A DNA stretch of 64,000 bases from Phoronis australis. Its lineage: Eukaryota > Animalia > Phoronida. How positions within the stretch are numbered: position 1 is the first letter of the stretch; each line of letters opens with the position of its first letter. Below are positions 7,080-61,307 of this stretch, piece after piece. The position numbers were made by a program, and so were the translations under genes. Location of the stretch: the NCBI GenBank assembly GCA_002633005.1, contig NMRA01000045.1:1233552-1297551 (forward strand), given 5' to 3'. The notes beneath the pieces are model-generated. The model did no database searches and was not told the DNA's origin. It saw only the letters and a program-made list of their open reading frames with translations.

Positions 7080-7278
7080 ATGGTGTAAGTCGTAAAACGT
7101 TGGTGTTTCTTGTGAATTTCAAGTGCTGTGTAAGACGTGTGCCCTAAGGGTTTACACTGTTACTGGCAGTTTACTGAACACTCCTTAACTGTGATTAAGA
7201 ACACCAACACCTTCAAGTGGCTATCAAACAACAACAGCTGACCGTGGGTACAGCGCAGCATCATATCAGCAGCCTCAG
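7080..7278 (+). CDS. EIF4G: Candidate eIF4G start: ATG GT|gtaagt...ttaag|A ACA CCA ([28 protein letters not shown])
   Basis: ATG at 7080 in good Kozak context (gggATGg). Phase-2 intron 7085-7199 with a GTAAGT donor. E2 ends CAG|GTAAGC in phase 0, matching E3. Confidence 0.55.
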
Positions 7279-39384: not shown

Positions 39385-40231
39385 AATACCACCGTCTTAA
39401 CTGGCAGTAGAGACTGTGGCCATCCCATAGGCCCTCGACACGCTGGAAACTTTTCGACGAATTATGCCTCACACTGATTAAACCATAGAAGTCGTGTTGC
39501 TATAAGTACCTCTTGTGCACATAGGGGACATGGGTCACAAGGCCGTTGTTGCTTTTAACTCTTCCCAGCTTGATAAAGTACTCCCAAAATCAGTTTTTTT
39601 GAACAGTCTTTCCGCCCAAATGAGCAACTGGCTCACGCCAGGGAATATGACGTCATATCCGCTAGCGCGAGCAGTGTAAAAATAGTCAGTTGCTACTTTG
39701 GGCAACTGAACAAAGGACTGCTCGAAAAAAAAGCTTGATTACGAGAGTATTTTCAGTGCCAAGTTTTGCTCGTTACCTTCGGGAACAATGGTGGCTGTCC
39801 GCTGTTAAGTTTTAAATTCGGGGTTTCACAGACGCGACTAAGTTGTTTTTGCATTCGCCTAAAGGAAAGACATTTCGGCAACTTCAAATAAAAAATTGTC
39901 CAACTGTGAGAGGACTTCCATTAATTTGAAGTGTGAATATCACACAATTAGCGCAATGTGTTCTGCTGAGTAAACTGCTTTGTGGAAAACTTGACACCAG
40001 AAATTTCAAAGCAGCTCTTTTGGCGGAGAAAACTTGGCTATGTGTTCGATTTGGAATGTATTAAACATTCAATGGCCTCTTAAGGTGTCCTTCTATGTGC
40101 AAAAGTTTCTTATGGCATCATGACTTTTTATAATTATGGTTAAATCAGTGTGAGGCACAACTCGCCAAAAAGTTTCCGGCGTATGGTGAACCTAAGGGAT
40201 GGTCTCTACTGCCAGTTGAGATGGTAGTATT
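39385..40231. mobile_element. Foldback/MITE-like element with long imperfect TIRs
   Basis: AATACCACCGTCTTAACTGGCAGTAGAGAC...ATTATGCCTCACACTGATTAAACCATA is mirrored at 40134-40231. Partial copies of the internal unit occur at about 38920 and 39050. Confidence 0.7.
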
Positions 40232-42567
40232 CACTGAGGAAGGGAAAATTTTGCCTTCATGCTATGTGGGATACGAAAGTAAAATGTGTGGTTGTGTCTT
40301 GAAGGGTGAGGAGGCAGCAAAGGTATAAAATAGTCTTCGGCTTTGACTGCAATAATCCCGGCCCTGAACAATCTTGTAAAACGAACACGAGTCATTTCTG
40401 CTCTTCTGTTAACTAGCAACTTCCAATTAAATTATTGAATCAAAACTGGAGGTCAGTTTGCAAGTATCTGTTGCATATGTCGGTGGTTTAGTGTTCGACC
40501 ATGCCAGTTTCTTGACGTTGCGTTCAGCGTAATTGCCAAAAAAGTTCCAAACGCTAGCAGAATATTAGAGGACAGCCAAGGTGTTCAGAAGAAGTGTAGG
40601 CATTTACTTTACATGTGAGTTACTCACATTGTAGAAAACTTGGTTTTGTTTGCTTGAGCAGCGTATCGTGAATCTCGTCTGGCTAGTCCAGCAACTTAAG
40701 TTGAGTAATTCATATTCTTAAGTGGTATGGTTCAAAGAATTTTTGGTGCGTTCATGTATCTATGATCCTGAATAAAGTATCGGATATAATATATTGACAT
40801 TGGCAATCAATAGATAATCAACACTGAATGTTTCATAATAAATCGTAACTGTTGTGAAAACAATGCTGCCACTTTCCGTCATTCCGCAGCTAATTTCGTA
40901 AATTTATTGCATGTATTAGCAGATACAGATTCTTCAATAATGTTCTCCCTTTACAAGTTTAATATGTAAATTAGTAGGCAAAAATATTTAAATTGTTTTT
41001 TTTACATGTAATTAGCAAGCTACAGAAAGAGTTTTTGGTTATTTCGCACAGACGAAAAATTTCACTAACTTTTGGTTTATGTTGCTTTGTTTATACCGTT
41101 TTCCCAGTAAGCACGCCGGTCTCATTTTCGAAAATGCACATATAAGTCATTGTTTGAGCTCTCTTATAGGGTGAGCTACATGTGCTTGGAGTAGCGGAAC
41201 TGAGGGGAAAATCGGTGTTAATCAAGCATGTGAGACCCTCCTAATTTTCTGCATCATCAAAAAACAGTGCTGTGGTCACGAAAAATGTTAATGCCACCTG
41301 GAAAAACGAGAGCATGAGTTGCAATATAGTTTCATTCGTTCATTGACTTCTTGGTTCAACTGTAAACATACAAAAATGTAGCTATGAGTCAACTGAACAA
41401 TGCAATAGCCATTTACAAATAAACCTCATTGTTAATAATCAGGGGTTCATATAGGATTCCAAAACTGGGAGTTCATTTAAAAAATGACCAAACATGGGAG
41501 TTCCCTCGAGCATTGGCTTTCCGTCAGTAACACTGTGACCGCGGCGCCATGTAGTGGTGTATCGACCCATGTAATAACATAGTACGATGAAGGGGAAACA
41601 AACGTGTGATTGATGAAACACAGATCATTTGTTTATTCAATAACTTTAGAATGGAAATTTATACATATGTATTTGAAATAATATACGCATAGTATTCAAA
41701 CAAAAGTCAAACTTCTAGTCTATGGTAATGGGAAGAATACTGATTAGACACAGTTGCAACATTCGATAGGTCGGTGTTTACGAGTACAACGTTACGAGTG
41801 CAAAGTTTTGACTATACTACAATAAAACTAACTGCAATGTACTTCATTTACACAATTTTTTGCATAAATCGTGGCTAAGAGGTGTCTAGACTCATTGTTA
41901 TGAACATTGGAGTGTGAGTGAATCAAAATGGCACGTTACACCTGCATTTATGGTCAGTCATGCAGAAAAGGCTCACTTATGTTTGCAAAATATTGAAGAA
42001 TTATAGCATCGCGTGGTTAAATAAGAGACACGGCAGAAGCTGCTCCATCAAAACAAAACCGCCATCAGATGGGGAATATAACCAAAGTATATTTAACATG
42101 TACTGAGTTGGTTGACACTGTATACAAACGCCTCTCTTACAAACCCAGGTGCACCGGGGGATTATTTGATGAGTTTCCCAGTGACCAGTTTGACACTTCA
42201 TGTATTTCGTTTGTTTGATTTCCATCTCTTTCCAATGAGGTTTGGTGACCTCATTTCCATTTGGACGACCTTGGAATTTTGCGACATCACATGTGGGGAG
42301 TTGAAGTTGTGCTAAGCGCGGGACCCTGATTGCATAGGTGAAATTGATCTAGACAACATGTTGACGAATTTTATTGCGTTTTGATTCCTGGTTGAATCGC
42401 GCAAATAATTACTTTTAGCTGGACATAGTGTTAAGGAGTCTCTTTATGCTTAAGGGTACGTTTACATAACAAAGCCCTACTGTCAAACAAATAGTGATAG
42501 GTGTCATATTGAACAATTGTCATGCAGAGTGTCAACCTCATTCTCATTTCATTTTTCAGTAGATACC

Positions 42568-43596
42568 ATGGCTAGCAGTGATGCAGCTTTAGTAGGAATT
42601 CGAGAAGAGCTCACTTGTCCGTTGTGCCTGTTTGTTTTTACTGATCCCAAGACTCTACCTTGCTTACATTCATTTTGTACAAGCTGCATTAGTGATCACA
42701 TTGCTGCTACAGGAAAACATGGAAGATTTGAATGTCCGATATGTAAGACAGACATCATCATACCACCAGGTGGAGTAAGGGGACTGAAGGACAACTTTCA
42801 AATCAATAACATTGCCACGTTACTTCCATCTGAAGAGTGTTCAATGTGCCCTATTCACCCAGATCAAGAGATCACAATGTTCTGTAATGATTGTGAAATG
42901 CCATCATGCACACATTGTATGGTAGACCACAAGGAACATGAAATGGTTCAAACTCATGATATCAACCAACGAAACAACAAAGAAGTTGATCAACTTTTTG
43001 ACAGTGTAACAGCTAAGCTTAATTTTATTGATACTTCTCTTGAACTATTGACTGAACAAAGAGATTTGTGTAACAAGGAGGAACAACGCGTTACTCGTTT
43101 GATTTCTGAACACTTTCAAGAAGCCGAAGCTAGGTTAAGAAAGATGAAGGAGAGTTTGGTGAATGATGCAAAAGCGAAAATGGATGTGTTCCGTGGCCAG
43201 TTAGATGCTGACATAACCAATATGGAAGAAAGGCGTAAAAGGATAAAAGGAGCTGTTAAACATGTCAAAACTTCTCGTGAATTTGCAAGTGTGCATGACA
43301 AGCTTTCTCGACACAAATATTTTGTAAATCGTTTAAGGTTAGTTAATGACCAGTCTATAGAATGCAGCATCAACGAACCAGCTTTTGATGTGCAAACTGA
43401 AGATGTGTCCCTTGGATTAAAAGTAATAGTAAAGTCCAAACACCTGGATCTTAAGCACCCTGAAGATAGAAGTTGGAGCTCAGGCAATATGGAGTTGAGC
43501 ACGTCCGATGATAGTTGTGAAAGCATAGAACATGACACAGCTGGCCAGACATGTCACTTGTCAGATGAAGATGTTCGGTTGTATCAGGTGGTATAA
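42568..43596 (+). CDS. TRIM (RBCC) protein exon: RING-HC, B-box 2, coiled coil; no C-terminal domain of its own
   Basis: ATG at 42568 after a tttcag acceptor. RING CPLC...CLHSFCTSC...CPIC; B-box CPIH...CNDC...CTHC..DHKEH; heptad-rich helix. Ends either at TAA 43594-43596 or at the phase-0 donor CAG|GTGGTA (43588). Confidence 0.93.
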   Translation: MASSDAALVGIREELTCPLCLFVFTDPKTLPCLHSFCTSCISDHIAATGKHGRFECPICKTDIIIPPGGVRGLKDNFQINNIATLLPSEECSMCPIHPDQEITMFCNDCEMPSCTHCMVDHKEHEMVQTHDINQRNNKEVDQLFDSVTAKLNFIDTSLELLTEQRDLCNKEEQRVTRLISEHFQEAEARLRKMKESLVNDAKAKMDVFRGQLDADITNMEERRKRIKGAVKHVKTSREFASVHDKLSRHKYFVNRLRLVNDQSIECSINEPAFDVQTEDVSLGLKVIVKSKHLDLKHPEDRSWSSGNMELSTSDDSCESIEHDTAGQTCHLSDEDVRLYQVV

Positions 43597-46500
43597 AAAC
43601 GTAAAACCTGGTTATATGCAATAGGTCACATGGCCTTAAAGCTGAAATGACTTTGGGGAATGTTAAACATGAAACGGTATATATAATAGATAAGCCAATA
43701 TCTTTCCTTCGGGTATGAGCTATAATACATGTCCATGCACTCATCCAGCCTTAATTTATGGGGCTCTAATCTTTGAGAATGTGGACCTTTTACTAAGATT
43801 CACGGGTACGTTCAGAGCTATGAATTATGAATTCGACGAATTTTGGTAGTTCTTGCCTTTTTAGTGGAGTTTTGTCTCGTCGTCTACTTTTTTCGGAGTT
43901 TTGTTTCTCTGAGGCGGACCTTTTTGCCCACTTCGCCTTTGAGCCCCCCTTTGGGTGCGCGTATGCTGTCATCACTTTTTGTCTTCTGATCAACCTTCGT
44001 CGAAATATTGAGGCTGCTGCTATAAACCTGGCATTCTGTCCAAAAAGTGAACGTTGATTTAGATCACTTACCGCATTAGAATTGATCTCAGTTCGTCCTT
44101 AGTCAGATGAAAAGTGATTTTTTGGCATTGCTCTGCTGTTTTAAGCACTGTTTTAGTTAAGATACTTGGCACAGCTTTGTTTATTAAAGGATCAAATTTC
44201 TTTAGTATGATTTAAGAATGACAGTAGACTATGAGTAATGACATTTAGAAGTAATGTTCCACGTCCGAGGTAGTGTTGTCATGGCTCTTCATTTCTGGAA
44301 ACGTTAGAAAACGAATTGCGCGATTAACCTAGTTGATCGATTCAAGGGTGCTAACACATTTCTGAACGTCTTATCGCGCCTCACTCAGCTTTTTAGTTTT
44401 TGAAACTTTATTCACATCAGAATAACAAATGTCTAAGGAATTTTAGAGAAAAATTGTGATTTCCACGGCACCACACTGTCTCAGTATGAGGCAACTACTC
44501 AACGGATGTGCAGCATTGTGGGTAAATATCGCACTATTAAAGAGGGGGATCTCCTACAATTCTTGGATGTGGCTATTTGTATTTAAAAGAATTAAGAAAT
44601 TTGACTCTTGTTAACAATTCTTCAAAAAGTCTTGTATTTTGATAGCCCCGCATGCTAAATTGGCAAATTAAAAAAATTCTAAAATCGTATTGGAGAACAT
44701 TGCTTTAAGCATAGTATCTGAAAGTTTCATTTGAATCCAGTTAACCGTTTCTCAGATAGGATGTTCCAAAGTTATTCCAAACTGAACATTTTTCCAGTTT
44801 TCCACATAGTTACAACCGATATCATGTAAATTTTTATGAGTCAAGTAAGACGGGATGTGAAATAGACACGATGAGGCAACTGCGGCTGATTTCCAACACA
44901 ACTCTACTTCATCTAACTAAGCGTTGGTTTACGTACTTGAAAGTATGTAATTTCTCTAGTGAATAGTGGAGAGTGCGCCACACTACGCATAAAATTCCTC
45001 TCTGGGTTTATTTTGCTAATGGTATAATCAACTTTACCTGAATGTAATGAAACATTGATCAGACCTTAACCACTTTTAAGTAGTTTCCACTTCTCGGAAG
45101 TTAACAGAAAACAGTGGTGCTCGAGTGCAACTTAAAGTAGGAAAAGACCTGTTATTTAAACGTTAATGTTACAGGAAAGTATGGGTGGTGGTGACAGGAG
45201 GTCTGGCCTGAGAGACTGGTATCCTATGCCTCCTAAGGTCACTGGACTCCCTAATGATAAGTTTGAAGATCTACAGCTCCAGCATGAGGAGAATGAATGG
45301 AAAACAGGAAGCTTGAGAAAGACTGAAGACGACCTGGATGTCCAAAAAACTGAGGTATTTAATTTTTGGCTTTGGTACGTTTTGTCTGTTCTGTTGCCTC
45401 TGATGATGTTGCGTGCCCTAGTCCTGGATATTGAAAAAGTTTGGATTTTCCATTGCTTGCGCTATCCACATTTGGGAAACATGCTTTTTATAACAGTTTT
45501 ATGCACTCCCCAGTTTGCTTCTCGTGTACTTTTGGAACTTAAAATAGTTTGAGGGTGCACCAGAATCGATGCACTGAAACAGGCTACTTGGTGCGAGTGC
45601 GACGATAGAAAAATACCTGTCATGGATAAATACAGATTGGCAAATTTTTGCCCGAAAGATTCCCAAGGCACGCGTCATCCGATTTTACACGTAAACTTAT
45701 TTTTCCACAAGTTACCTGTGATGCCACCGCGTACAACCGTACAGCATTGCCCGTTAAAACAACAGCAGTCAAGTATGACATCCACAATTGTTTTTAGGAG
45801 AGCGAGAAAATCCTCTGTGATGACTATTGTATGCGCTCTGTGATAGCATAGCTCTCTTACCAGGTTGGTACTCATGTCCACTGTTTTTCTTGCAGTATCG
45901 TCAAGTTCTGCCCTCAACGTCTCCCCATGACATGAATAAACAGCCAATGCATCAGAACTTGGGGCCTCCTCAGAATAACCCGCAGGCCATGAATCAGATG
46001 TACTTTCAACAAGGCCGACCTGCTGTAAGTCTTGACAGCTTTCACTTTTGATCAACAACTTTTCACACGTGTGTAATATGATTTGATCATTGAACCTCAC
46101 TTTTTATCTGGCTACGTGTGTGTGGGGGGAGGGTGCATTTAATTTCCGCCAGTGTCCAGGTGGCTGCAGTGCTTTTGCTCGGCCAGGTCCACCCGCCGGC
46201 TAAGACGTCTGATTGGTTCTCGATAACTACTTCCGACTTGAAAGCTATTCAGCCTCCCGTTCACTAACGCTAGGACCTCGCTAAAAAGCAAGACTTCGCG
46301 AGATTACGTGAGATATTGCCGTGCATTTTAAATGAGAACACACGCCAGATGTCTAGCAGAGTAAGTAAAGCCCAGCCAACGTCCTCTCGATATCTTAAAA
46401 AAACGTCTGGCTGAAAGGACCTTTCCCCTCCATCGTCCAATCAGAACGCAAACAGTATGCCACACAATTGCTTTGTTTCTAACCTTCACAAGCGGCGCCA

Positions 46501-49500
46501 TTTTTAGCATTAGCCTGGTAAGAATCGTGTGGCAGCTACCCGTGGGCGCCAGCAAAAGGAGGTGCAACATGAGAACACCGGGACATTACTAACTGTAACA
46601 CGAGTAAACGACTATTTTTGTGAGGGGTGGAAAGTAACGAAAGATCACTACAAGCGTCCTTTTATGAAAACCTAGTTCTGCACTTGTACATTAATATAGA
46701 TGGCCTAATGCATTTTGTTGTATCCTTAGGCCTAGTGCATGGGAGTATCCCCGGGTGTTTAATTTTCTTAGAAAGAAAACTAATTACAACGACAGTTGGA
46801 CTTCTAAAGGGACAATAATCTTACCAGTGTTTACTAACACTTACCCAAAAGTGCATAAACAAAACGAATCTAAAATCTTTTCCCCAGCAATTTGCATGCG
46901 TATTCCATGCGGCTTTTCTGACTTGCGCATCGATCGCCTAGCACTTGTCCTTCACATTTACTTCATCTTCAGTCACCACCATAAATTTTGATGTCGTAGA
47001 TGTCACATTGCTAATATTAATCTAAGGCCTTTCTCTTTACTCAATCCCCAAGATTATCTTCTTTTGGAAGATATATGACAGAAAAGTTGTCCGGAATTTT
47101 CTCCAGAAATTATCCGTGTCAACTTCGTTAACAGACGCTATTTTAATAACTAAATATAGATGTCGCTACCCGTCCGATCTCGGAAAAGTCCATTACGGTG
47201 AAATCATATAAAGTATCACAGGGAGGCGAATTCCAAACCAGGCTCACATGTATATAATGTGGTTGTGCCAGTGACAATAGACAGTTTCGACTACCTTAGC
47301 TCCAAATCATAATATTCAACAAGAAATTTCTTGCTGAAGATGTTTCCTTATGATATCTGGAAGCGATTGGCGCCTGTTGAATCTGTACACTTCAGGATTT
47401 TTTTATTATTCACATACTGCGGGTTTTATGCCAAATTAACTCGCACAACACAAGGCATTTTTGTTAAAAGAGCGGTCTTCTTCGTATATCGCTCGGTTCG
47501 TGAATACTAGGCATTTTAAAGCAAAATCGTGTTTAAGACGTGACGTAAAATTTTAGTTTCTAAAAAGTTTTAGTAAAGTCAGTTGGTGAGTTATTTTGCG
47601 ATGAATGTACCTTTCTTGCACATGAGAATTTGAAAAAAACGTTGTCATGTGACGATAATAAAGACACAATAGTTAGAAGCATACTTTTAGAATCCTCGAT
47701 CGTTCTCCTTTCACAAAAACATATACTTTTAATGGTTGACAAAGCATGTGTTCGATATTTGACTTACAATTGAGATCGTTTATTAAGCTCATAGAATACG
47801 AATTTCGAACGAATTGATTGTTCTCTATAGAACTTGATCCTGACGTATATTGTTGGGAGTGAACCAGCACCACCATTTCTTTGAAGGGTTTCGGCAAATC
47901 TACCACCCCTAGTGGTAATTTAATTTGTGCAGGTGACCAGGACCTCCAGGAATCTGTTGTAATGCTGTTTCTGATCGTAAATCCCAACTCCGCTTACAGG
48001 TCTGCAGTAAACAGCCCAGGCCACCAGCCACCCGCCAGCACAGGCCCGCAATGAACATGAATAACCAGGTCAGTCAGCAGCAGTACCAAACAATGCAGGT
48101 CTCCTGGCCGCCGGGTAATCAGAACTACATGGCTCAGCCGCAGCCGCAAACCTATATGATGGTAGGTATCTCGCTATTCACGCGACTTTCTGTTGATAAC
48201 AGTGCCATTGACGTGGGTGTATTAATGACCATTCCATGCAACTGGATTGTCGTTTCAACGAACCTATCAAAAATTCAATTTTCGTCTCTGCATCTGCTTA
48301 TGAATGGACAATTTTAGCTGGGAAATGCCGAGAGAAATCGATGTCATATAGACCACCAAACGCAAAAAAAACAAAGTCAAATTTTGCTCTCCCGACTAAC
48401 TACAACAGTGCTAACATAAAAGAGTACTTGGTTTATAAAGGATTTGACCTTGTTAGTAAATGCTCAAATATAAGATTAAATATTCTTATGTAAAAATAGT
48501 TCTTGTTATGCTATTATCTTTATGGTGGCTATTTGCATTACCTTTAGAAGTAACTATGAAACGGGATTTACAGAATGTGTTATTTTATCCAGAGGGTGGA
48601 CATGCTTGAATGTAGCAAGTTTTGTAGTCGTCCCTCACTCTTTGACATATGTTTTGTGTTAATGTTTGTGTCTTCTGTTGATAGGTTTTCCAAAGACCAG
48701 CATTGATGAAGTAGCTTGTTAAGTTTAGTACATTTCCAATGTACTAAACTATAGCATTGTGTTCTGATATATTTGGATACCTTAATCCAAAAAATCTAAC
48801 GTCTTGCAAGGTTCACCGTCTTGTCATAGCGTCTATTGCCATCCATTGCGTCCAAGTGTTTTCTGTTTCAGTATAACCCTGGGCAGGCCATGAACGTGCA
48901 ACAGTCACAGTATGTTAGTCAGCCACAGAACTATTCCATGGCCACCACACCGCCTTACTATAACGCCCCGCAGCCTCGAGGTAACACTATTTGAGCTACT
49001 GAGTTATGTAAACAAGGTTCCTGTGAGCACAGTAGGTTGAAACTGTCCTTTGCACGCTAATCACTCGTGTTTTAAAAATGCAACTTAGGAATATTAGTAA
49101 CTCATAGTTACTAGTATTCTCAACAAGGTTCCCGTTAACAGAATTGATTTAAAATTTCCTTTGTGAGTCACCATGATTTAAAAATGCTACCTATGGAATG
49201 GTATCAATACTATTAGTATTTAAAAAACAAGTTTTATCAGCTGTGTCATCGACCCTTGGCGAACAACACTGCATGGTGTAGGTTATGTGCTCTCACGAGG
49301 CGCATCATTACGACAAAGATCATTTTCCCACATTCCTGGTTTACACTTTCGTAGTTAGTGTCATTTAAGGTAACTTGGGTATACCAAAGACTGTGCTCTG
49401 GCGTAAATCAAAGTCCAATTTTGTTTCTTGTCACCCAACCAACAGTAATGAAGCCAACCGACTCAAAAACATTTTTAATGAACAATTATTTCAATTTCAC

Positions 49501-52500
49501 AAATTGAAGCATTAAGTACTAGTCCACGAGAACACCAACCATGAGCGGCAAGGTGGGGGTCAGCCGATTTTCACCAAATTTGGCACATATGTAGTCCTAT
49601 GGGATCTATAAACAGCGGTGAAATATTTCCTCAAAATATTGTGTTTTTCTAAAGTTATAGGTTCAAACACATTTTACGGTTTCGCAGCCATGTTTTCACG
49701 GTATAAAAACTGTCCAGTTTTAACTGTTCATATTTTTCCTTGAATGAAAGCTATTGATTTATTATTCACTTGGCATTGTTTAGTGGTGCCTATAGATTGT
49801 TACACAGATGTCTTGAAACACGATTCCGATTTACCGCCCTCATTTAGTAGTTTTACTACACTGCCCCCCGTTATGCCATTTTGAGGTTGTGTTCAGTACA
49901 CTGCTGTACCAAATCTGCCCCCACTGCTATGAGAATGAAACTTAGCCAAAATGTTGACAAAACATGTTACTTTCATTGCATAAAATAAAAACTTTGTCAG
50001 CCAGTTTATTAGTTATACATTTTGGCACCTCAAATGTACTAAAATGAGAAATTGTCATATATCTGAGATCGATGCGTGAGCACCGTAAAATCCGATTGTC
50101 CTTCATATTTTTCGATATTTTGCAACAAGTTAGTTCCTCCTGAATGTTTTGAACGTTTTACTACTGATCACTTTGGGCTATAGTACCCCTAAATACCACA
50201 CATGGCTCCATTTTGTAAAAAGCCGATTATGTCCTCCGCAGTGAACAGGGTTAGACATGAACTCGACAAATGTAGGTTATTTTGATTTACAGTTGTTTTA
50301 CTTTGCAATTTCCTCATGGGTATTTCTTCACACATATTCAAGTCAGATTTTCTGTTGATCAAATGTTCATGCAATGCATTGTAATATCAAATGAATGATA
50401 AGTTTGGTGGCATGACCGCAGTTTTTCCCACGACTTAAAACAAAAGACCGCAGAAATTTTCCTGACGAAATACCGGGTTTGCAGTTCTCTAAAAACATTC
50501 GAATGACAAGACAAACTCCACCACTGTCTGTGGCAACTCGTCGCATGTTTTTCGCCCATCGGTCCTATCATTGTTTTCCATTGTTGTGTCACTGTTGGAT
50601 ATAACAACACAGGTCGCATGGATATAGAACCTTGCGTACATCAGACCGTTGCCGATAAGTGCTCGTCATTATATCTTTATTATAACAATGAAGATGCTAA
50701 TCTATTGTTCTCTATGCGACCAGGTTTCCCGTGGATGACCACAGAAGAGGAATCCCAAAGTATCCACAAACAATGACCACGCACCTTAGTAACTATTACC
50801 GCGCACACGAATCCTTTCCGTGGAACCTAAACACCAAATTTTTATATCCGTGTATTGTGTTGTATTGCTCATGGTACGGGTTCAGACTCTGTTGTATTAA
50901 GATTCCAATCCCCAACCCAATCTGTAGTTTGAGTAAAATTTCAAGACAATGCAGGTTTATGGATTTATTCTCCTTAAAATGAAGAGTAAAAATCAAATTC
51001 TGCACAGGTTTTTTAAAAGTAATCACTTATTGGAAGATCACACATCTAAAAAATAAAACAATGTTTGACAATTTTATTCATTATCTTATTTGAAAATTGC
51101 CTACCTCACAGACAACTCATCTAAGTTGAAAATATTCCTTGTGAAAAAATATAAAATACCAACCAGAGACTTGTGTACTACAAAATATGTTTTCGTAATA
51201 CAATGCAAAGATAACTGTACAGTCAAAAGTGCAAATGTTATGACTCTAATAAAAAATTGCCTTCTAGATCTTTTCAACACTCTAATTGCTACAGGACAGA
51301 GTCAACCACACAAAGCTCATAAAGTCAGGGAATTACATTTAAGGTGATGTAGTCTCACTGCGAAAAAGTGATTTCGCAATATCGCTGACAACACTGGAAA
51401 TCTCTTCTTCACAAACTTGAGGTAGCTGTATTTACCACATCAATGTTCTTATCAAAACTAACCACCACAAAATGAAAAATTGGCTTGTCGGTTCCAATTA
51501 GGCAGCATTTTACAATGAAATGGTCATGAAAAAATACTTTTGCAACATGGTTTGCATTACAATTGCCCTACGATTACAGTTGTACATACATACTAGACCA
51601 GTAACAAAATTACCCATGGGAACCATAAAATGGTCAATTCGCCAAAAAAACAAGGAGCCACCAGAGCTAATGTGCCAATACTTTTCAGTACTGCAACAAA
51701 AAATCATTTGAAGTGGACATAAACTCGCCTAAAATCACATAAAACAACTTTTGATTTAGACATTTTACCATCACGAAATAGGTATTACTTCCAGGTCACT
51801 TTTGAGCAATTTCAGAACTTTGAAAGATCTGGCAATATGCAATTGCTAGAGACCAGACTAATAGTGTGTGATTTTATACACACAGCATGGTCTCAAGGAA
51901 TAGCAAACTGTCAATTCGCTATAATTCCAGAAATCACTTCCCATCTGGATAAGGAACAAACTGAGCAAATTTTATAGAGGTAAATGGTCTAAATCAAAAC
52001 TTATTACCTCCTGGACAGAATATGGGTTTACAACCCAGGCAGAAAGATAAGTTAACAAAACCAGCCTAACTGCAACAGGGTCTCAAATTTCAGTAATATA
52101 TACCCATTTACAAACAAAAATCTATAATGGTAAATAAAATGCGGAAACATAAATTCAGATCAATTACGCATCTTCAAGGAAAATGAATAGTACAGTGGTC
52201 AGAAATCATCTAAATGTGATGGCGACACTGAGAAATCCTGTCAGACCAAAAAATCCAGTGGTTAAAAAAAATGAACAATGTACCATTACCATGTGGCCCA
52301 GGATCATAATCCGTGCCTGGACAAAAATTCAGTCTTAGACTAGGTAAATTTTAGATTTGTGCTGTTCACACAAGCAGTTCTGGTGCAAACAAAGCTTGCG
52401 ACAACACACAAGCCTACTTCCCTACACAGCTGTGCTGATACAATAATGCCCCCACTGGATTTAGCAGATCAGCCAGAGTATTTACAGGTCCAGCCACTGT

Positions 52501-54922
52501 ACTGTTTCCTCCCTTTGAATTTTTACAATGCTACATCCTTGACAATCGCAGATTGCCTCTTTCAATGCATACTCCACTTCCTCTGTCCCAGTTTCCCCAC
52601 ATTTGCTGAGAGTGGCCTATCTCAACAAATTACTTTGGACCTGTTGTGGTATAAGCCAGTAATCTTTGGCAAATACTTTTTCCCCAACTCGTTCCTCAAG
52701 CTACAAATTCTCTTTGACATATCTTCTGGGAGTAGACTTTTCGGCCTCTCTCTAGCCCCCTCACTTAGTTGTCCAGAAGGGTACCTTCTTGCTGGTTGTG
52801 AACTTTTCCATACCCAACCTTTACTAATAATCGGCAAGTCTCCAACTTCAGCAGAAGCCACTTCTTCAGCATAAGCCTTTCCTGATTCCTAAAATTGTAT
52901 TAATGAAAAATTAAACATATTAAATTTAATGTGGCCATTTCGGCTCACAAAATATGAATACCAAGCTAAAGTGAAGGCACCAATATTTTTGACGGCTTTA
53001 GCATGTTTAATTAACTTCATAATCGCAGAAAATCATTGGTAGACAAAACATACTCCCTAGTCTCTAAAAGTAGTTCATGGGCAGAAGTCATGTTACACAT
53101 TTGGTGGTTGTTATGAAAAGTTATGATGACTACCTATTTTCTATGCCAATGTATACATGTAGTTGCATAAACATCAACACATTTGAATAAGATATGATTA
53201 AGCAATAAGGCCCAAGTTATAAGCAATCACGGTGTGTCAATAAAAGTATTTTTGCATGAATGACGTGCTTCTAAAAATATTCCTCAGGGTCAGACCCTGG
53301 AGTTTAGTGATTCCTACCTGAGCTCACACGAAGCAGGACGTTGAACCTTGACTTAACGTCTTTGGTCATTTTTCAGACCTCTATCAGGCTCTATCAGATT
53401 TCTCCTCTAGTGTGCAGTGGATGTTCTCAGTGTCTTTGGCGACAGCAATATATCTCGAGTGTTGTAACGATGATTCGGGCAAGTGAATCTAATACGGTAG
53501 ATTATGTAGCTCCTGCTGCACACCTGCCTCCGAGGCAGACACTGAGACAGACTACTTCTCAGGAGGACACGTTCCACCTCCACATCAGCTCCACGTACTC
53601 TTATAAGGTGCTCAAATGTCTCGCTCTATACCTTGTGCATTTCCCAAGAGTTTCCAAAGTTGTTTCTCTCCGCAATTTGTAGAAATACCACATTCGATGC
53701 GACTGGCAGTGCCAGATAAATAGATAAATTCGCAAACCCGCACTTTAGGTCAGCCATCATTCAACTAACGCATTGTAAGCTTTAGTTTGGTATTCAGACG
53801 AATTGAATGAACAAATTTAGTATAATTTCATATTTTAGTGGGAAATGCTAGTGTCTTTAAAATTAATTAAAAACATTTAAGCAAACCAATTCTTTTAATT
53901 GTTGTATTATACCACGGCATATTAATGCGTAGAAACGGCGCACAACTAGTGACTGGTTTAACATGACAAATACACATACGCGGTCTGAAAATAGTGAAAT
54001 TCAGACACCTATTACCAAGCCTGCCTGAAGGGCTGACAAAGTTTTTATTGTATTAATTTCAAGGGCATGGAGTCTTCTACATGTCCATGTTATTATTTTT
54101 AGTTTTCTCGCGGGGGCAGCTTCGCTATAAGGGTACAACTTACTGCTGGTTTTTCACAAGAAGGAAATGTACCTCCACGGAAACAGTTCCAGTGTTACCA
54201 TGGTAACAGATATTGCAGTGTCGGTGCCGTTTTTACTGACATTGGTCATGAACCTATCATGTGATATCAAAATTGTTCAGAAACGATTCTGTTTGAAGCA
54301 GAAACTGGAGTAGAAAATTTGGTCAAAAATGACTCATTCCACACCAAGAAATTGCCTCATTTTGCCCCCAAGAACACTTCCCTTGTATCTCCTAAACCAC
54401 CAAACTTTGTGGTGTCATACTTCACCCAATTTCTCTCATCCCTAATGTGATTTATCAGACTAAACATGGATCTGAATGGCTGACCCCCCACCTTGCCGCT
54501 TGTTGGCTGTACAGTGGTCGGTGGATCCGTGGACTGATACTTAATCACTCCAAAATGAAAAGTGAAAAGAACATGTTACTTACCTACCAGTCTCGGAGGA
54601 ATGACTGCAGGACGACTAGGGGAAACAAATAAATACAAGAACAGCATAATCGTGTTGCTATTGTGAGTCTTTGTGTACAAAACCTCGACTCTTTTTTCCA
54701 GTTTACTATTCACAAATGCCAGTACAGACTAAAACAGTCAGACCTCCATCACAGCCAGCATACCAACCACCACGATACCAAGTGCCACAGAAGCGGGAAC
54801 GCAAACCTATTCTGGTCATCAACCCAGAGACGGGGAAGAGTATCAACGATGACCTGGCGTCTACCACCAGCAGCACAAGTAGCGCAAGTAGCTCAAGGAA
54901 CAGCACTCCGCCTGGTGTTTAG
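42568..54922 (+). CDS. Predicted chimeric TRIM-eIF4G(N-terminal/PABP-binding) gene, locus A, about 606 aa
   Basis: Join 42568-43587, 45175-45354 (E12 copy), 45896-46024 (E3 copy), 48000-48161 (E4 copy), 48872-48980 (E5 copy) and 54702-54922 (E6 copy, TAG). All splice sites are intact, phases are compatible and there are no internal stops. The TRIM donor is weak. Confidence 0.6.
45175..45354 (+). CDS. Duplicated eIF4G exon 12
   Basis: ESMGGGDRRSGLRDWYPMPPKV...ENEWKTGSLRKTEDDLDVQKTE versus 17137-17316; same length and splice sites; 20/60 aa differ. Confidence 0.85.
45896..46024 (+). CDS. Duplicated eIF4G exon 3
   Basis: 4 nt differences from 7871-7999 (3 synonymous, 1 Q>H). Confidence 0.88.
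48000..48161 (+). CDS. Duplicated eIF4G exon 4
   Basis: Same length and phase as 9166-9327; [37 protein letters not shown]. Confidence 0.88.
48872..48980 (+). CDS. Duplicated eIF4G exon 5
   Basis: 4 nt differences from 10305-10413 (3 synonymous, 1 Q>R). Confidence 0.88.
49516..54540. mobile_element. About 5-kb TTAA-targeting DNA transposon (Kolobok-like?) inserted in the duplicated intron
   Basis: TTAA|GTACTAGTCCACG...GCGGCAAGGTGGGGGTCAGCC on the left; GGCTGACCCCCCACCTTGCCGC...CGTGGACTGATAC|TTAA on the right. The parental intron has a single TTAA at 10942-10945. A related terminus occurs at 57621-57650. Confidence 0.75.
54702..54922 (+). CDS. Duplicated eIF4G exon 6 with PABP-binding motif, now terminal
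   Basis: [22 protein letters not shown] at 54791-54856; new stop TAG at 54920-54922; the original GTAAGA donor is not preserved. Confidence 0.85.
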
Positions 54923-57900
54923 CAATGAATGGACTACCGCCGTCGAAAGTGAAGATTCAGTTTGCACATTGGTTTCAATGAAGATTCACAATATATGTCC
55001 ACCACATGCCATGAGACGCCATTCTGACCTAGCGATCTCAAGTCCGCCCAGACGGAAAGAGTCGGGAAATTAACGATCTGCAAACCATACCAGTGTTTAC
55101 ACATTCTAACAAACATCGCATTTCGGGCATTTGTCAGCAACAGTTAAAAATATGTTGGCTGCGATCTTTCCTGTGTATCATTGAATTGTATATTATTAAA
55201 ACTAAGCTATCCGGTAATAACATTTCGCGGTCTTTGAACTGTACTTTAAAATTAGTTCTAGTATTACTTTGATATAGTGGAATCGACAAATAATGAAGAA
55301 TTTAGCGACGTAATCATCAGCTGTTAAAACCGGTGTTCAAGCTTTTCACTAGACGTGAAGCCTGTACTATTGACTTACCGTACTTTTTCATTGTGTGCTT
55401 TCCTCTTTGCCATGATACCGAGTAATCTTTTATATCAACTGACAAGCCACGTGAGTTCAGCCTGCAATCAATTAGAGTTTGCATCTATTGAGGGCATCAA
55501 ACCTTCCACCATTGTCGTAAATGCTTGAATTCGGTCACCAATAGTTTTAGTGTGATATTTTAAATATTTTTTCTTCACTTTGTGTACTTGTAATGAATAA
55601 TGAAAGCAGAAATTAAAAAATGACATAAATGTAAGTGGGGTCAAGGAAGAGCAGCTGCTCCTGGGCGCTAGCAAAAAGGGGCGGCCAAGAGGGCCCCAGA
55701 TGAGCGCCCGGGGGGCACCACTGAAACACGTGGAAAGCGGAGGTGGCCGGGGGCGCCAGATACATATCGGAAGGGTGACTGTTAAGTAAGTGTGGATAAA
55801 GGAACAAACAAGTATCTACCAAAGGGGGGAGCATGCAACTGATAACCTGGGAGGGGGCAGGTCACACTGCTACCGACCGGCGGGGGCTCAACGAGCTTTT
55901 ATCGACCGGCGAGGGGTGCAATGTTTGTCCCTGCCTTACGTCACTTCGTTTCCGAATTGCACTACCTCGGCTGGTAACCTTATTGCATGTCATGAAATTA
56001 TTAGGGTATGGGTGCAATACGTGCCCCGCCCCAGCTTCCTATCACCCCAGTTTCATGACAATTATCCAAACATAACATTGAAATTATTGAGGAGCAATTG
56101 AAGTCAATATTTTTACCATACTTTAGATGAATAAGAGATCACTTGAAATGTTGAAATGCGCATTCAAATCAGGTGGTAACTTTGAATGGTAAAAAGTCTG
56201 TCCAAATTGCCTCGTTTTAGAGTTGTTCTCCAAATTCTGATGCTGATGGAGTCTGGAAGCGAGACAAGTCGAAACATTGCCGCAAGTGGTCTGATTACTT
56301 CTGCAGATTGTAATCTATCGTGTGTACCAAAATGCAATGTGCGTTCGTTCGCCGCGGCCCTCATGTCCTCGTGGGCAGTTCGGGTGAAAGTGTGCGGCCC
56401 GCAGTCGTTATTCGACCCAGACTTCGCTCGTGCTTTACGACTGAAAGCGTTAAAGCCGAATAGAAATCGGTTTGTAGGTAACGTGAGCTCTGAAGAAGTT
56501 AAACGCTCGTAAGTTGACGCATAAGCGGATTTAGGGGGTGGNGCAGAGGGCCCACCCCCCTTCGCTGCCACAAAAAAATAAAACAGCAAGAGCGTAGGGA
56601 AATGTTGAGTTTATTAATTATCCCCGGTAATTAAAATTATCAGGCTGAAACAAGATTTAAATGTGTGCAGTTTTAGGGTTTGGGGGGGGCTCAGATCCAA
56701 TTTCAAGTGTCAAATTCGGAAATTCGGAACACGGCGCAATCGTAACGGAAGTATGACTAAGTATAGACTCTCCCGCGATATCTCAGGCGACCGGCAGTGG
56801 CACTGGGCACTACGACTCCGTTTTCGTCGTCTGCTCCACTGAGCAACGAAGAAAATTAGGACCTATTTCATTTTTTAAAGAAAATGGGATCTTTGTGATG
56901 ATGAAAAAACAGAAGCTGCTGGTAAGATGCCAATTTTAAGTAATCGAAGCCTTAGTGAATCACTCAGAAACTCATAATTCTTTCTTAATCTTTGTCAAAC
57001 CTTAACTTAAGACTATTTCCAAAGCAATCGCGTCATTATTGCCAACACAAAAAACGGATTTGATCTTTTGGGCAATTGAAGACTATTTTAAATACAACAA
57101 ATTTGTTACGAACTGATTGCGCAAAATATAAAACATGTAATAAGCATTACAAAAAGAAGTTTTCGCGCGCAAACGCTGTGGACCATAATCAAGTAGGTCT
57201 CTTAGCATCATAATATTACGAGTTAAATTGTTGTGGTGCAGTGGTAAAGCACTCGCGCTCTATCCGCCAGTGCCGGGAGTTCGGGTCTGTAGCGCTTGCA
57301 GTTTTTCCTGTTTGACACTTTCTCCGTTTTTTTTTGTTTTTTTTTTGCCTTTTTTTCTTGGATAACACTTCGGGAATCAAGCAAAATGCTAGATTTTTAG
57401 AGGAAAAACAGAAAAATTTACTGGAAGGGAAGGGGGGCAAACCCCCCTCCCTACCTCCCCCCATTCTGTGCTACTGCGCTGCGCATACAATCGTGCTTTG
57501 AGCAAATGTTTACAGACAAAATATTGGGCCCCCTTGTGATATCCTAGTTTCGCCACTGTAACGCTCTCACTTTTGGGTCGTAATATCACGCTCGTAATTT
57601 TAGCAAAATAGTTTTTAAATTTAAGTACTAGTCTACGAGACCACCAGCCAATAAATTAATATGTAGCCAGATGATGGTTTCGGTGGTGCAAAATACGATC
57701 TACAAAATACGAGTGTACAACTGTCTCAGAGTTCACGCGACCTAAAGACCAATTTCGCATTGGCTGTAATGATTGCGTTAATGACCAACGAAGTCTCGCT
57801 CGTGCAGTGTTGTAATGCTGGATGTCAGGGATTTATCGGAGTGGGTCTTCAAATAAACTGACGGCCATCTGCATACTTATATTCCTTGACCTTGAACCTC

Positions 57901-60896
57901 GGTCAACGGCATCTATTGGTACATATGTGAACTACAATAACAGCCGATACTGCAGCTCGTAATTAAGTGGATTCCAGCAGCCACGCATGCCTTGGTCTTG
58001 CTTAATTAGACGGAATAGGTGCATGAATCACTTCTTTAGCAGACATGTGCTGTGACGTCGTACGTACTGTTTTCAGTGAGTCACCGACAAGTAGCGCTGT
58101 ACATAATGTTTTCTTAGAATTCCCCAGGCTTGGAAATCCCAGCGATCAACGAGGAAGCGGCGAATGATTGTGAGGTGGACTGACCAACAGCAAGGTTAAA
58201 GAAGTTTTCAGTGGGTTGAACTGTTTTTCCACTAGCTACATAATTCATCGATGCACCAGCAAACCTTGGAGTTCATAGGTTGACGGAAACATGTGGGAAC
58301 TTACGCCTCGTAACGAAACTCGGTCGATCTGAAAACAAAGCCGTCGCAACTGTTGTGCGTGAACTTGGAATCTTGCTTGAACTCAGGTTCCTGTATGCTT
58401 GAACTTGGAATTGAATATTCATTTGGACAATTAGGTGAAATTTTTGTTCAATGTAAAGACTTTTTGTAATTACTGGCCTCTGCCTGATCACCCATTTTCT
58501 CCTTCAGCATCATAACTTGTATCAGTAAAGAATCGGAGGAATATGTGAGTGGTTAAATCAATTTTTGCCGTTTGGTGAACAAGGTCGCCAATAGTTGAAC
58601 CAGGATTGATTAAGATTGCTAAGTAAACAACAACATATTGATCGTCGTCATTTTGACTTATACACCGCTGTACAGTGTACCTGTACGGTCTGTGTCACCT
58701 GAGTACTGGACTATTGGGAACTTTTGTCTTGATAATGGTTTAGACAATAAACTGCAACGTCGATCATATCATACATGTATATTCATATATGCCCTGATTT
58801 TAAAGCTCGTACTCATATTTTGGCCAAAAACAAATGTGATTAAAATTTACTTTATTTTAATAACATGTAATTTGATTTGGAACCGGCAGTTCAAATTTTT
58901 ATCAGCGTGAAAGTGATTATTTGGGCGGGCTTGTCAAGATTTCTCGTGTTTATCAAGTTCACGCATATGCAATCTTGTGATAAAGCAGGATTCCAAGTAC
59001 AGGCTCAGCATAAGAAGTAGCTGGTTCCCTGCTTGTCCGCTAATGGTCTACCTCCTTGTAGACACGCAGGGAACCAGCGAGTTGCAACAAAAGCGGACGG
59101 GTGAGACGTAAGAGTTAGTTCGTTTATAATACTTATTCTTCACATCTGAAACTTTTTCTTTGAGGTGCCAAAATTGTGTTTCATAGGGATGTTCTCGAAT
59201 CATAATCCTATGCTAAGTGGAAAAGCCGACGTTTATTTGATTGAATTTCAATAGGCGATCGAATGTGGCGAAACTTCATGTCGACCCTATCCGGGGTCGC
59301 AGCCGCTACTGAGAGAGAGGAAATAAATAATAAAATGCGGATTTTTTTAACGAAATCTAAGGATTTTGCATGTCCGACAAGTATGCAATTGCAGTACACA
59401 ATTGGAGGCTGAAACGACGGCAAAATTGCGATCTCTAGCTTTCAAGACCGTGACCTAAACGAAGTTGTGTTAAAATCTAACCGCCATGCTCAATTGAAAT
59501 CACGGTGAAGAGTGTTTAACTTGTAAATTCAAGGAAAACAGAATATGTAATTATAAGAAATTGATGGCGTTTGATTGTGATTTGGTCAGCCATTTAATTA
59601 ATTGTTTTATTTATATGTGTTTATTATGTTATTATTGTTATTATTGTTATTGTATAATGGTCTAATAAATTAATTAAATAGGCCTACATCGAGATCGCTC
59701 GCTGGCCTCGCCTGTCCGCTACTTCGACTGTTCGACTTTCGTTATGAGGTGAAAATTCCCTTATGCATGTTCCCGTCAACCTATTCCTATATTAAAATTA
59801 TACTCTTCTTTGTTTTTCTTCTTGAAGCACCAAAATTCATCAAGAAAACACTCAGTAGTGGACGTCACCTGGAGACACAATGTTGTTATTTAGAATTTAA
59901 AATTAAAAAGTGTATACAGAAAAAATGCATAATGCAGGTTAAAAACAGCTAAGTAAACTTAGTTTATGTCTGCGAATTATACAAGTGGCTGGTCCTGAAG
60001 CGTCAAAGGGTTCTTACACGAGTACCTATCTGTACGTTGTTTAAGAGCAGAACGATGATCATTCTAAGGACTATACAAGTACGCGAACATTAAGGAGAAG
60101 TACGAGTACTTTAAACAAATGTAGATTAAGCTCATTTCTACGTCAGTGCGGAACACTGCAGACTGTATTTGTTTAAGAAACCCTTTGGCGCTTCTTAAGG
60201 ACGCTTGTGTATGAACGCTATTTCGTAAACAACCATTTCTTGTTGTCGTTTTTTGTTCCCTGCCTCACGAGATGAACCTGTGCGTGGAGTAGTAGGCCTG
60301 AGAGGGGGAAACTGGTAGTTATCAAGGTACTGGCCTAATTCCGCTCGAACAAGCAACTGGCAAGCTCGGGTGCACTATCGGGCATTTGCTGAGTTCACTG
60401 GTAACCGGCCTAACGTTTCAAGCATCTCGTTCATCTCATTTGTGTCTCTTGCCAACGAGATTTGGCGTCCCCATCTCCCATTTAGCCACCTGAGAATTTT
60501 GCCACGTAGCATTTGGCAAGTTGAAGTTATGCGAAGCGTCAATCCCTGATGACATAGATGAATCCAGACAAAATATTGATAATGATTTACGAATTTAACT
60601 CGTTTTGCTCCCTGGCTGTTACTGATAGCTCTCATTAGAAAATTGTGATGCTGAGTCTAAGCCTCATTCTCAGTTCAGCAACGATGCATTTTGCTTCTAA
60701 GTTGATTCTAACAGTGTGACCTAACAGTGTGACAAGGGAGGAATTTACACATAGTGGAGTTTCATGGTTCAGTTCTCAGTTTTACACCTGACTGATTTAC
60801 TTGTAGGTTGACTGATTTTGGATGATGCTATTTTCATCGGTCAATTTTCGTGTATCAATCTCATCCTCATTCCACTGCTTTTCAGTTTCTGCAGCC

Positions 60897-61307
60897 ATGG
60901 CCAGCAACGCTTCAGCTTTGTCTGCACCTTTGTTAGGAATTCAGCGAGAAGAGATGACTTGCGCGATATGTTTGTCGGTTTTTACTGATCCGAAGGCTCT
61001 TTCGTGCCTGCATTCGTTTTGTACAAGCTGCATTGTTGACCATATTGGTAATACAAGTAGGCATGAAAAGATCGATTGTCCGATATGCAAGAAAGAGACC
61101 ATCATACCGCCAGCTGTAATGGGACTGAAGCTGCCTGCTCTTTACTCAGGGAAAGACGAACACATTTCGGTTGGTAACACGGAGCTGAAAGCCCCTGTAG
61201 ACACTACCAATCAGGTAGCAGGCCGTAAGGACAAGAAAGACTTGAAATATAAACACACGGAAGGTAGAGAAAACAGCTTTTTATGCGCCCACATTATTTC
61301 ACATATT

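Follow-up and report, generated by a model that had tools for sequence, protein, structure and literature searches.

A likely chimeric TRIM-eIF4G gene with circularly permuted eIF4G exons in the phoronid Phoronis australis

Introduction

Where does a TRIM gene end when its reading frame stops without a C-terminal domain and exons copied from another gene lie downstream of it? The question is raised by a locus of Phoronis australis (contig NMRA01000045.1 of GenBank assembly GCA_002633005.1, positions 1,233,552 to 1,297,551 of the forward strand). This whole stretch of 64,000 nucleotides (nt), hereafter the window, in whose own numbering all positions are given, holds an intact eIF4G gene (the parent gene) and, further along the same strand, a TRIM open reading frame (ORF) followed by copies of five parent exons (A-E); we call the TRIM exon and these copies unit 1. 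An interpretation made from the letters alone, the sequence-only reading, had proposed that the TRIM ORF splices into the copied exons to give a protein ending in the PABP-binding motif of eIF4G. Its account of the unit 1 exons in the DNA stands and its interpretation is partly supported, while it had overlooked that the exon order is permuted, that a second unit pairs a RING with the eIF4E-binding motif, and that parallel fusions are predicted elsewhere. We conclude that this is likely a real chimeric TRIM-eIF4G gene.

Results

The TRIM exon and its donor site

The parent gene and the parts of unit 1 are as follows.

7200..31534, plus strand: intact, intron-rich parent eIF4G gene (5' end approximate; tblastn of relatives)
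Landmarks of the parent gene: exon with PABP-binding motif 11114-11337; exon with eIF4E-binding motif 16402-16535; MIF4G from 17783, then MA3 and W2
42560..43587, plus strand: TRIM exon with RING, B-box and coiled coil (acceptor 42559/42562, ATG 42568, donor CAG/GT at 43587/43588, stop at 43594-43596 if unspliced)
45175..45354, plus strand: exon A, copied from parent 17137-17316 (the exon that directly precedes MIF4G), 80% identical
45896..46024, plus strand: exon B, copied from parent 7871-7999, one of 43 amino acids changed
48000..48161, plus strand: exon C, copy of parent 9166-9327
48872..48980, plus strand: exon D, copied from parent 10305-10413, one of 36 amino acids changed
54702..55534, plus strand: exon E, copy of parent 11114-11293, with its own stop at 54920-54922 and a copy-specific 3' untranslated region to at least 55534
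54791..54856, plus strand: predicted PABP-binding motif of the PAM1 type, KRERK (from the sequence and the pattern in relatives)

The ORF at 42568-43596 encodes 342 amino acids (aa). A C3HC4 RING at aa 17-59 (PF00097, E 2.4e-8), whose ligands are invariant in the alignment (8/8), is followed by a B-box at aa 91-127 (PF00643, E 2e-6). AlphaFold2, run with 17 sequences, predicted helices over aa 129-239 (111 residues) and a hairpin at 242-264, with pLDDT (predicted local distance difference test) values of 81-94; the final 70 C-terminal residues of the model have low confidence. The best Foldseek matches of the model were KAP1/TRIM28 RBCC (RING, B-box, coiled coil) structures (E 2e-6), and a structure search placed the RING closest to TRIM2 RING structures. 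By sequence and predicted fold, the N-terminus of unit 1 is that of a TRIM or RBCC protein, and antiparallel dimerization and E3 ligase activity would follow from membership in that family.

Searches returned no close protein relative of the TRIM (8 matches among 902 candidates and 10 among 2821, the exact sequence being absent), a blank that reflects how poorly the lineage is sampled. The nearest sequence relatives are TRIM2/3/45/56/71-like invertebrate TRIMs, with 22-38% identity over part of the length; these have an RBCC-filamin-NHL architecture, whereas the window TRIM lacks filamin and NHL and appears to take its tail from eIF4G. As the sequence-only reading had stated, the 342 aa contain no Pfam match to filamin, NHL or SPRY, and the window self-comparison and ORF list place eIF4G exons downstream instead. 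The missing C-terminal domain to which that reading had pointed carries no weight by itself, the nearest neighbours being RING/B-box clusters of 278-450 aa with no tail family listed.

The phase-0 GT that had been proposed as the donor, two codons ahead of the stop, is present at 43588, and a further GT lies at 43591. On a matrix built from the 26 donors of the parent gene, the site at 43588 scores 0.65; four of the 26 true donors, when left out, score lower, and no other in-frame GT in 43300-43760 scores as high. The alternative at 43591, which the sequence-only reading had also put forward for scoring, falls below all 26 parent donors and was dismissed. Among 1215 GT sites, 7.7% score at least as high as 43588, and the donor is thus weak yet ordinary for this gene region.

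The copied eIF4G exons and the predicted product

The copies A-E correspond in length and splice sites to the parent exons at 17137, 7871, 9166, 10305 and 11114. They are 80-97% identical to these exons and keep all nine splice sites (9/9), and the copied segments carry their intron flanks along (window self-comparison). When spliced from 43587, they extend the TRIM frame to exactly 606 aa, the length that had been estimated, with a single terminal stop at 54920-54922; the observation of a TRIM ORF with in-frame eIF4G exon copies is hereby confirmed. Also borne out is the claim that the last exon keeps the PABP-binding motif and stops about 20 codons later: the motif retains 20 of the parent's 22 residues, both changes are conservative, and the stop comes 21 codons after it. 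The KRERK pattern was matched in 7 of 16 full-length relatives, and the two changes fall within the variation of those seven. The only match in the PDB was weak, a human eIF4G peptide (1lj2_C, E 1.1); rotavirus NSP3 binds this same motif and is the partner of the peptide in 1lj2. Exons B-E are rich in Gln (16%), Pro (16%), Ser (10%) and Asn (8%), and ATTAAA occurs 3' of the exon E coding part at 55195 and 55612.

Exon A had been regarded as N-terminal eIF4G. It is in fact copied from the exon that immediately precedes MIF4G, which makes the order a permuted one; its parent exon aligns to 6zmw_g 408-455, in the RNA-binding linker of human eIF4G1, and corresponds, by an assumed offset, to about residues 697-744 of the human protein. 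Unit 1 lacks the eIF4E-binding YxxxxL-phi motif, and no copies of the parent exons at 17.5-31.5 kb (MIF4G, MA3, W2) occur in 42-64 kb of the window. Having neither an eIF4E site nor MIF4G, unit 1 cannot serve as an initiation factor. Protein searches with exon E gave only 2 matches, neither with a RING, the lineage being poorly sampled, and a metagenome scan gave 57 pattern matches, none of them confirmed.

RNA evidence for splicing

Of eight runs listed, X5-X8 were aligned to 36301-56300 at 90% and X4-X7 to 42401-46150 at 80%, with 18-19% of each raw run read; the run search gave no carrier registered as RNA, a blank without evidential weight. X4 is a DNA run; the RNA status of X5 is the tool's guess, though one X5 contig skips introns. 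The joints listed are 15 of 51 in the first alignment and 15 of 61 in the second, repeats having filled both tables; the second alignment, aimed at the TRIM-A and A-B joints, was dominated by the repeat at 43760-43940.

Sense-strand transcription of the TRIM, starting from an upstream exon, reaches 28-63x in X6/X7 and 2-6x in X8. Depth in X6/X7 rises from 0.1-3.7 before the acceptor at 42559/42562 to 28-34 after it, and from this step we correct the description of the TRIM as single-exon: a non-coding exon precedes it. A 1189-nt X5 contig matches 42560-43588, the donor end plus one G shared with the start of exon A, and then joins 45247 in exon A, where 25 letters match, 7 of them at positions at which the parent has another letter; a match by chance has a probability of 6e-9 to 2e-5. 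Consistent with coverage stopping at 43588, depth in the donor's bin in X6 is 20.3, vs 19.5 expected in that case. Further along the chain, four X7 reads join exon B to the start of exon C and share derived letters with the copy, and an X5 contig covers 54782-55534, past the end of parent homology, at a depth of 30 vs 47 on the TRIM.

The first splice (TRIM-A) is thereby supported once, by one contig, and the weak donor at 43588, lying within the parent range, is the point at which that contig leaves the genome before re-entering it in exon A. In X5, transcripts do not simply end at a poly(A) site just after 43596 with the downstream exons bare, the outcome that had been named as contrary to a fusion. 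The proposal that the TRIM continues into eIF4G exons is thus supported in part, by the first splice, the four copy-type B-C reads and the copy's 3' end; an A-B joint, which would link the pieces of the 606-aa chain, is not among the joints listed, and we regard the full product as likely.

Three further observations concern the runs themselves. X6 and X7 hold at least two further TRIM haplotypes. X8 has no B-C or C-D junction reads, though such reads are mostly of parent type in X6/X7, and its TRIM depth is also low; this pattern may reflect a parent isoform without the N-terminal exons, or co-regulation of the two genes. DNA run X4 shows no third copy of exon A; this absence was set aside as unusable, the records being filtered and showing gaps where the window has sequence.

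Selection on the copied exons

Of 2207 aligned columns in the intron flanks, 463 differ between copy and parent, with 74 gap openings, vs 75 of 760 nt and no indel in exons A-E. At the measured rate, exons free of indels would arise by chance with a probability of 3e-6; the mildest assumption tried raises this to as much as 0.08. Exons B and D together carry two non-synonymous changes where about 21 are expected for a neutral copy (P ~7e-8), and exons B-E carry 25 where 51 are expected (P 2e-5). Within exon E, pN is 0.04 in the PABP motif vs 0.14 in the rest of the exon upstream. Exon A has 26 amino-acid changes vs a neutral expectation of 16 (P 0.009, with five exons tested and the intron rate a rough estimate).

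A second unit and the origin of the permuted order

The following features bear on how the locus arose.

45497..45545, plus strand: approximate head-to-tail junction, parent intron at ~17.5 kb joined to parent intron at ~7.5 kb, near 45540
58079..60677, plus strand: blocks homologous to 37101-42551 (self-comparison, local alignments)
60897..61263, plus strand: unit 2 exon 1, intact RING joined within the exon (~61131) to the 3' part of parent exon 13585-13773, donor kept
63589..63722, plus strand: unit 2 exon G, copied in frame from the exon that binds eIF4E, with YxxxxL-phi at 63627-63647

The second unit has a RING (60897) that is 66% identical to that of unit 1. Its B-box and coiled coil are deleted, and this in-exon deletion leaves a RING-eIF4G fusion in frame; exon 1 would then splice in frame to exon G, which matches a human eIF4G1 peptide (5t46_B, E 7.5e-11). 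Homology reaches the end of the window, stopping just short of the next acceptor, and the unit 2 gene likely runs beyond it. From the self-comparison, units 1 and 2 are taken to be tandem duplicates that include upstream DNA.

Exons of the copy run A, B, C, D, E and then F, G, vs B, C, D, E, F, G, A in the parent, which is a circular permutation. At the head-to-tail junction, the left arm of the local alignments is weak (E 0.018) and the right arm is firm from 45705. We hypothesize that a 10-kb piece of eIF4G (~7.5-17.5 kb, the N-terminal third, ending before MIF4G) was joined head to tail, by way of a DNA circle or a tandem duplication, and was then placed behind a TRIM. The simplest history would start from an ancestor with the order TRIM-F-G-H-A-B-C-D-E, in which a 10-kb circle or head-to-tail duplicate is represented by almost a full turn; this ancestor would then have been tandem-duplicated with reciprocal loss, such that unit 1 kept the whole RBCC and the PABP site and unit 2 kept the RING and the eIF4E site. 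Duplications through a circular DNA intermediate, in which A-B/C-D becomes B-A/D-C, are described as sharing the permuted blocks and the head-to-tail junction seen here (PMC7450558; PMC3245284), whereas the present copy lies 14-32 kb from its donor gene. Given this proximity, one or several tandem duplications followed by deletions would explain it too. The insertion ends of the permuted copy are eroded. A match of 71 nt between 44029-44098 and the intron that precedes exon G in the parent was considered as a trace of the lost F-G-H block in unit 1 and rejected; the same stretch also matches 51931-52021 in inverted orientation and is therefore possibly a repeat.

Parallel fusions and comparison with known systems

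Among 111 candidates, 41 matched the parent W2 exon, with 71-81% identity to eIF4G from bivalves, an annelid, a nemertean and a chiton, which by itself makes a lophotrochozoan source likely; the parent MIF4G is recognized by Pfam (E 4e-16). Three of these 41 matches join a TRIM-type N-terminus to eIF4G parts, all of them automated gene models. ACJMK2_007786 and ACJMK2_007788 of Sinanodonta woodiana combine a RING with MIF4G and W2, and CAC5359771.1 of Mytilus coruscus (P0025) combines a B-box with W2 and is annotated simply as EIF4G. In Sinanodonta, ACJMK2_007785-007789 (P0036, P0038, P0037, P0050 and P0063) form a run of partial eIF4G copies, two of them with an N-terminal RING. The tags 007784-007789 continue on from eIF4G itself (007784), and the Sinanodonta models start their eIF4G part in the homologue of exon A.

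The eIF4G part of P0036 is 97% identical to that of its own species and 92% to Potamilus, vs 57-65% to other species, and that of P0025 is 82-87% identical to Mytilus-like entries vs 55-66%. The RINGs of the bivalve fusions are 32-36% identical to the window RING, within a background of 29-44%, in a RING tree with little resolution. With the eIF4G parts nearest their own kin and the RINGs at background likeness, the comparison points to separate origins of the bivalve and window fusions. As a lead only, one ESM Atlas cluster (71 chordate proteins of 808 aa; score 0.83) may be a further parallel, with MIF4G predicted in 100% and a TRIM coiled coil (TRIM_CC) in 97%. The bivalve and chordate models resemble the window chimera in joining a TRIM-type N-terminus to pieces of the species' own eIF4G, but they carry MIF4G and/or W2, where the window chimera carries the PABP or eIF4E motif instead.

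Replacement of the C-terminal part of a TRIM by unrelated host exons is described for TRIMCyp (owl monkey and macaque TRIM5 joined to cyclophilin A, CypA) and for zebrafish ftr52 (RBCC-RanBD-CypA) and ftr06 (RBCC-chromodomain) (PMC3137616); ftr52, like the window chimera, is reported as multi-exon and formed at the DNA level. The window chimera differs from TRIMCyp in that its donor is eIF4G rather than CypA or RanBP2, its captured part is disordered and bears short linear motifs rather than a folded domain, its exon order is permuted, and its captured part is not known to have a viral target. Primate TRIMCyp genes are retrocopies of cyclophilin A cDNA, whereas the window chimera retains introns and has copied intron flanks. 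The eIF4G1 N-terminal fragment released by enterovirus 2A comprises the same third of eIF4G as the duplicated segment (PABP and eIF4E sites, no MIF4G), but the window chimera is gene-encoded and RING-fused, with the two sites split between units 1 and 2 as far as the window shows. Unit 1 is thus a TRIM, and neither a TRIM-NHL protein nor eIF4G nor TRIMCyp, with a build like that of captured-domain TRIMs. No published TRIM-eIF4G fusion was found in the literature searched, as judged from listings, with most subscription papers and supplementary domain tables outside its scope, and eIF4G and MIF4G do not appear in the main text of a survey of zebrafish and pufferfish TRIMs (PMC3137616).

Other features of the locus

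A spliced antisense transcript (~50700-54450, minus strand) lies inside intron D-E, with a joint at 52887/53317 (CT..AC) and a depth of 100-200x in X6-X8. It differs by less than 1% between animals and has two ORF pieces without a Pfam match; being absent from the parent's intron, the region is an insertion. A perfect 24-nt inverted repeat (32666-32689 and 36349-36372, 3659 nt apart) encloses a C2H2 zinc-finger ORF at 35234-35563 (weak Pfam match) and a 216-aa minus-strand ORF piece that lacks Pfam support and that we take to resemble the C-terminus of a long interspersed element (LINE). The element between the repeats is possibly a DNA transposon. High-copy repeats occur in the introns of the chimera at 43760-43940, 44650-44775 and 46250-46341, with DNA depth up to ~85,000 vs 50 in unique sequence.

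Discussion

We hypothesize that the product of unit 1 would be a dimeric E3 ligase with two disordered arms, each ending in a PABP-binding motif. Through the motif, the protein would compete with eIF4G for a place on RRM2 of PABP bound to poly(A); its Q/P/N-rich arm may favour ribonucleoprotein condensates, and the RING would ubiquitinate PABP or partners in the messenger ribonucleoprotein (mRNP), such that translation is damped or remodelled, probably in an immune or stress setting. We give about even credence to this reading, in which a predicted dimeric RING ligase docks on PABP-bound mRNPs and ubiquitinates there, and we infer every step of it beyond the transcript. In human eIF4G, the PAM1 motif (166-200) is described as binding PABP RRM2 (PMC12709193). 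The chimera with docking is favoured by the intact frame and splice sites, the conserved exons and motif and the X5 contigs, and also by unit 2, which retains its frame and motif despite the in-exon deletion, and by parallel gene models in two bivalves.

Several observations weigh against it. The joints listed include neither an A-B joint nor a read-level TRIM-A joint. Even at 80% likeness exon A matches the X5 contig over 25 nt only, from which it appears that exon A of the X5 haplotype is much altered. The letters of a spliced B-C-D-E contig, which also has a parent-type upstream end, and of most B-C and C-D junction reads (37 in X6, 18 in X7) are those of the parent; contig and reads are thus not creditable to the copy, and both were rejected as evidence for it. 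Depth at the copy's 3' end is 2.2x in X6/X7 vs 28-63x on the TRIM, and unique bins of intron 1 carry 0.6-8x sense reads. Exon A has changed four residues that are otherwise invariant in 17 relatives and the parent, and exons C and E are singly indistinguishable from neutral (P 0.18 and 0.24). Synonymous divergence (dS) in B and D (0.12) is likewise under the intron divergence (0.25), so gene conversion could account for part of their conservation. A pooled dN/dS of 0.59 was dropped as support; it equals what a neutral copy gives against a constrained parent, the copy being expected to show about half the intron divergence at non-synonymous sites. As to function, mutation of KRERK is described as weakening but not abolishing PABP binding (PMC4174440), and the N-terminal fragment of human eIF4G as a dominant repressor of translation only with both the eIF4E and PABP sites (bioRxiv 10.64898/2026.04.06.716749). 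Because a one-site fragment fails to repress in human cells, simple competition is unlikely to suffice; the ancestor proposed above had both sites, and a PABP site alone, without a RING, may do little.

Some of these points would be expected if the TRIM splices onward into a tail that is haplotype-variable or a minor isoform, with B-E kept parent-like by gene conversion and the PABP motif a passenger. The short exon A match and the shallow 3' end fit this, as do four copy-type B-C reads against ~40x TRIM depth in X7, and conversion is suggested by the low dS in B-D and by a run of ~38 identical intron bases before exon B. We nevertheless think it unlikely: divergence of the intron flanks (21%) extends to the very edge of most exons while no indel lies inside the exons, the copy-specific 3' end in X5 stands at two thirds of the TRIM depth, and reads from the copy would be masked by diverged alleles and by the parent's near-identical exons. 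We consider it improbable that the gene encodes a free-standing RBCC protein of 342 aa, with orphan eIF4G exons in decay downstream of it. The X5 contig that exits the genome at the donor and enters exon A speaks against this reading, as do the lack of AATAAA in 43560-45175, the conservation of B and D, the intact splice sites and the indel-free exons, whereas the rank of the donor among GT sites, a TATAAA at 43592, the few sense reads in intron 1, the frequency of tail-less RING/B-box clusters and an X7 depth that tapers ahead of the donor (9.7 vs 14.7 expected) are in its favour.

Alternatively, the fusion may be real and serve as an antiviral bait in the manner of TRIMCyp, in which case the eIF4G pieces would be decoys for eIF4G-binding or eIF4G-cutting viral proteins or RNAs, and the RING would ubiquitinate the captured viral factor or signal on it, rather than act on PABP. 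The TRIM changes fast, its RNA haplotype differing from the window at 58 of 1029 letters (5.6%), with 26 of 37 changed codons non-synonymous (39 sites listed), vs 5 of 759 and 6 of 760 (below 1%) for contigs of the nested antisense transcript; exon A likewise exceeds its neutral expectation. Relaxed constraint explains such change equally well, and the exon A excess has the statistical limits noted above. Exon A, on the human numbering assumed earlier (~697-744), would overlap the RNA-binding linker that lies beside viral protease sites, and the Sinanodonta models likewise start at its homologue. For human eIF4G, the linker after the eIF4E site is described as cut by viral proteases at 674/675, 681/682 and 718-722 and as binding RNA over residues 682-720 (PMC12709193). 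Unit 1 however lacks the exon that precedes A and would hold a 2A/L-type site, and the best-kept exons are B and D, which are not known as viral targets. That lineages captured different parts of eIF4G fits the notion of "any bait" better than one host target, and TRIM-CypA, reported to have arisen repeatedly and independently (PMC3137616), is a precedent. Overall we give the bait explanation rather little weight, and return to docking on PABP-bound mRNPs as the reading we favour.

In a bolder reading, which we hold to be rather unlikely, TRIM-eIF4G fusions would form a convergent and unreported class of "translation-factor bait" ubiquitin ligases, with separate origins here, in unionid and mytilid bivalves, and in chordates. 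In P. australis, an ancestral TRIM would have captured a circularly permuted N-terminal third of eIF4G with both sites, and tandem duplication would have split these between paralogs. As decoys or as shut-off ligases, the paralogs would counter viruses that exploit cap- and poly(A)-dependent translation, the counterpart of TRIMCyp for the translation machinery.

If the chimera is what it appears to be, borrowed PABP or eIF4E sites of eIF4G can direct an E3 ligase to mRNPs, and this would have happened more than once. TRIMs are known to have gained host targeting modules in the case of cyclophilin A and in a few fish genes; the capture of linear motifs from eIF4G did not turn up in the literature searched. 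The annotation of the parallel models, at present entered as "EIF4G" or "hypothetical protein", would have to be revised, and the two units would offer a natural test of the recent claim that a two-site eIF4G fragment is a dominant repressor. More generally, such genes would provide a testable handle on translation shutdown and defence in invertebrates without interferon.

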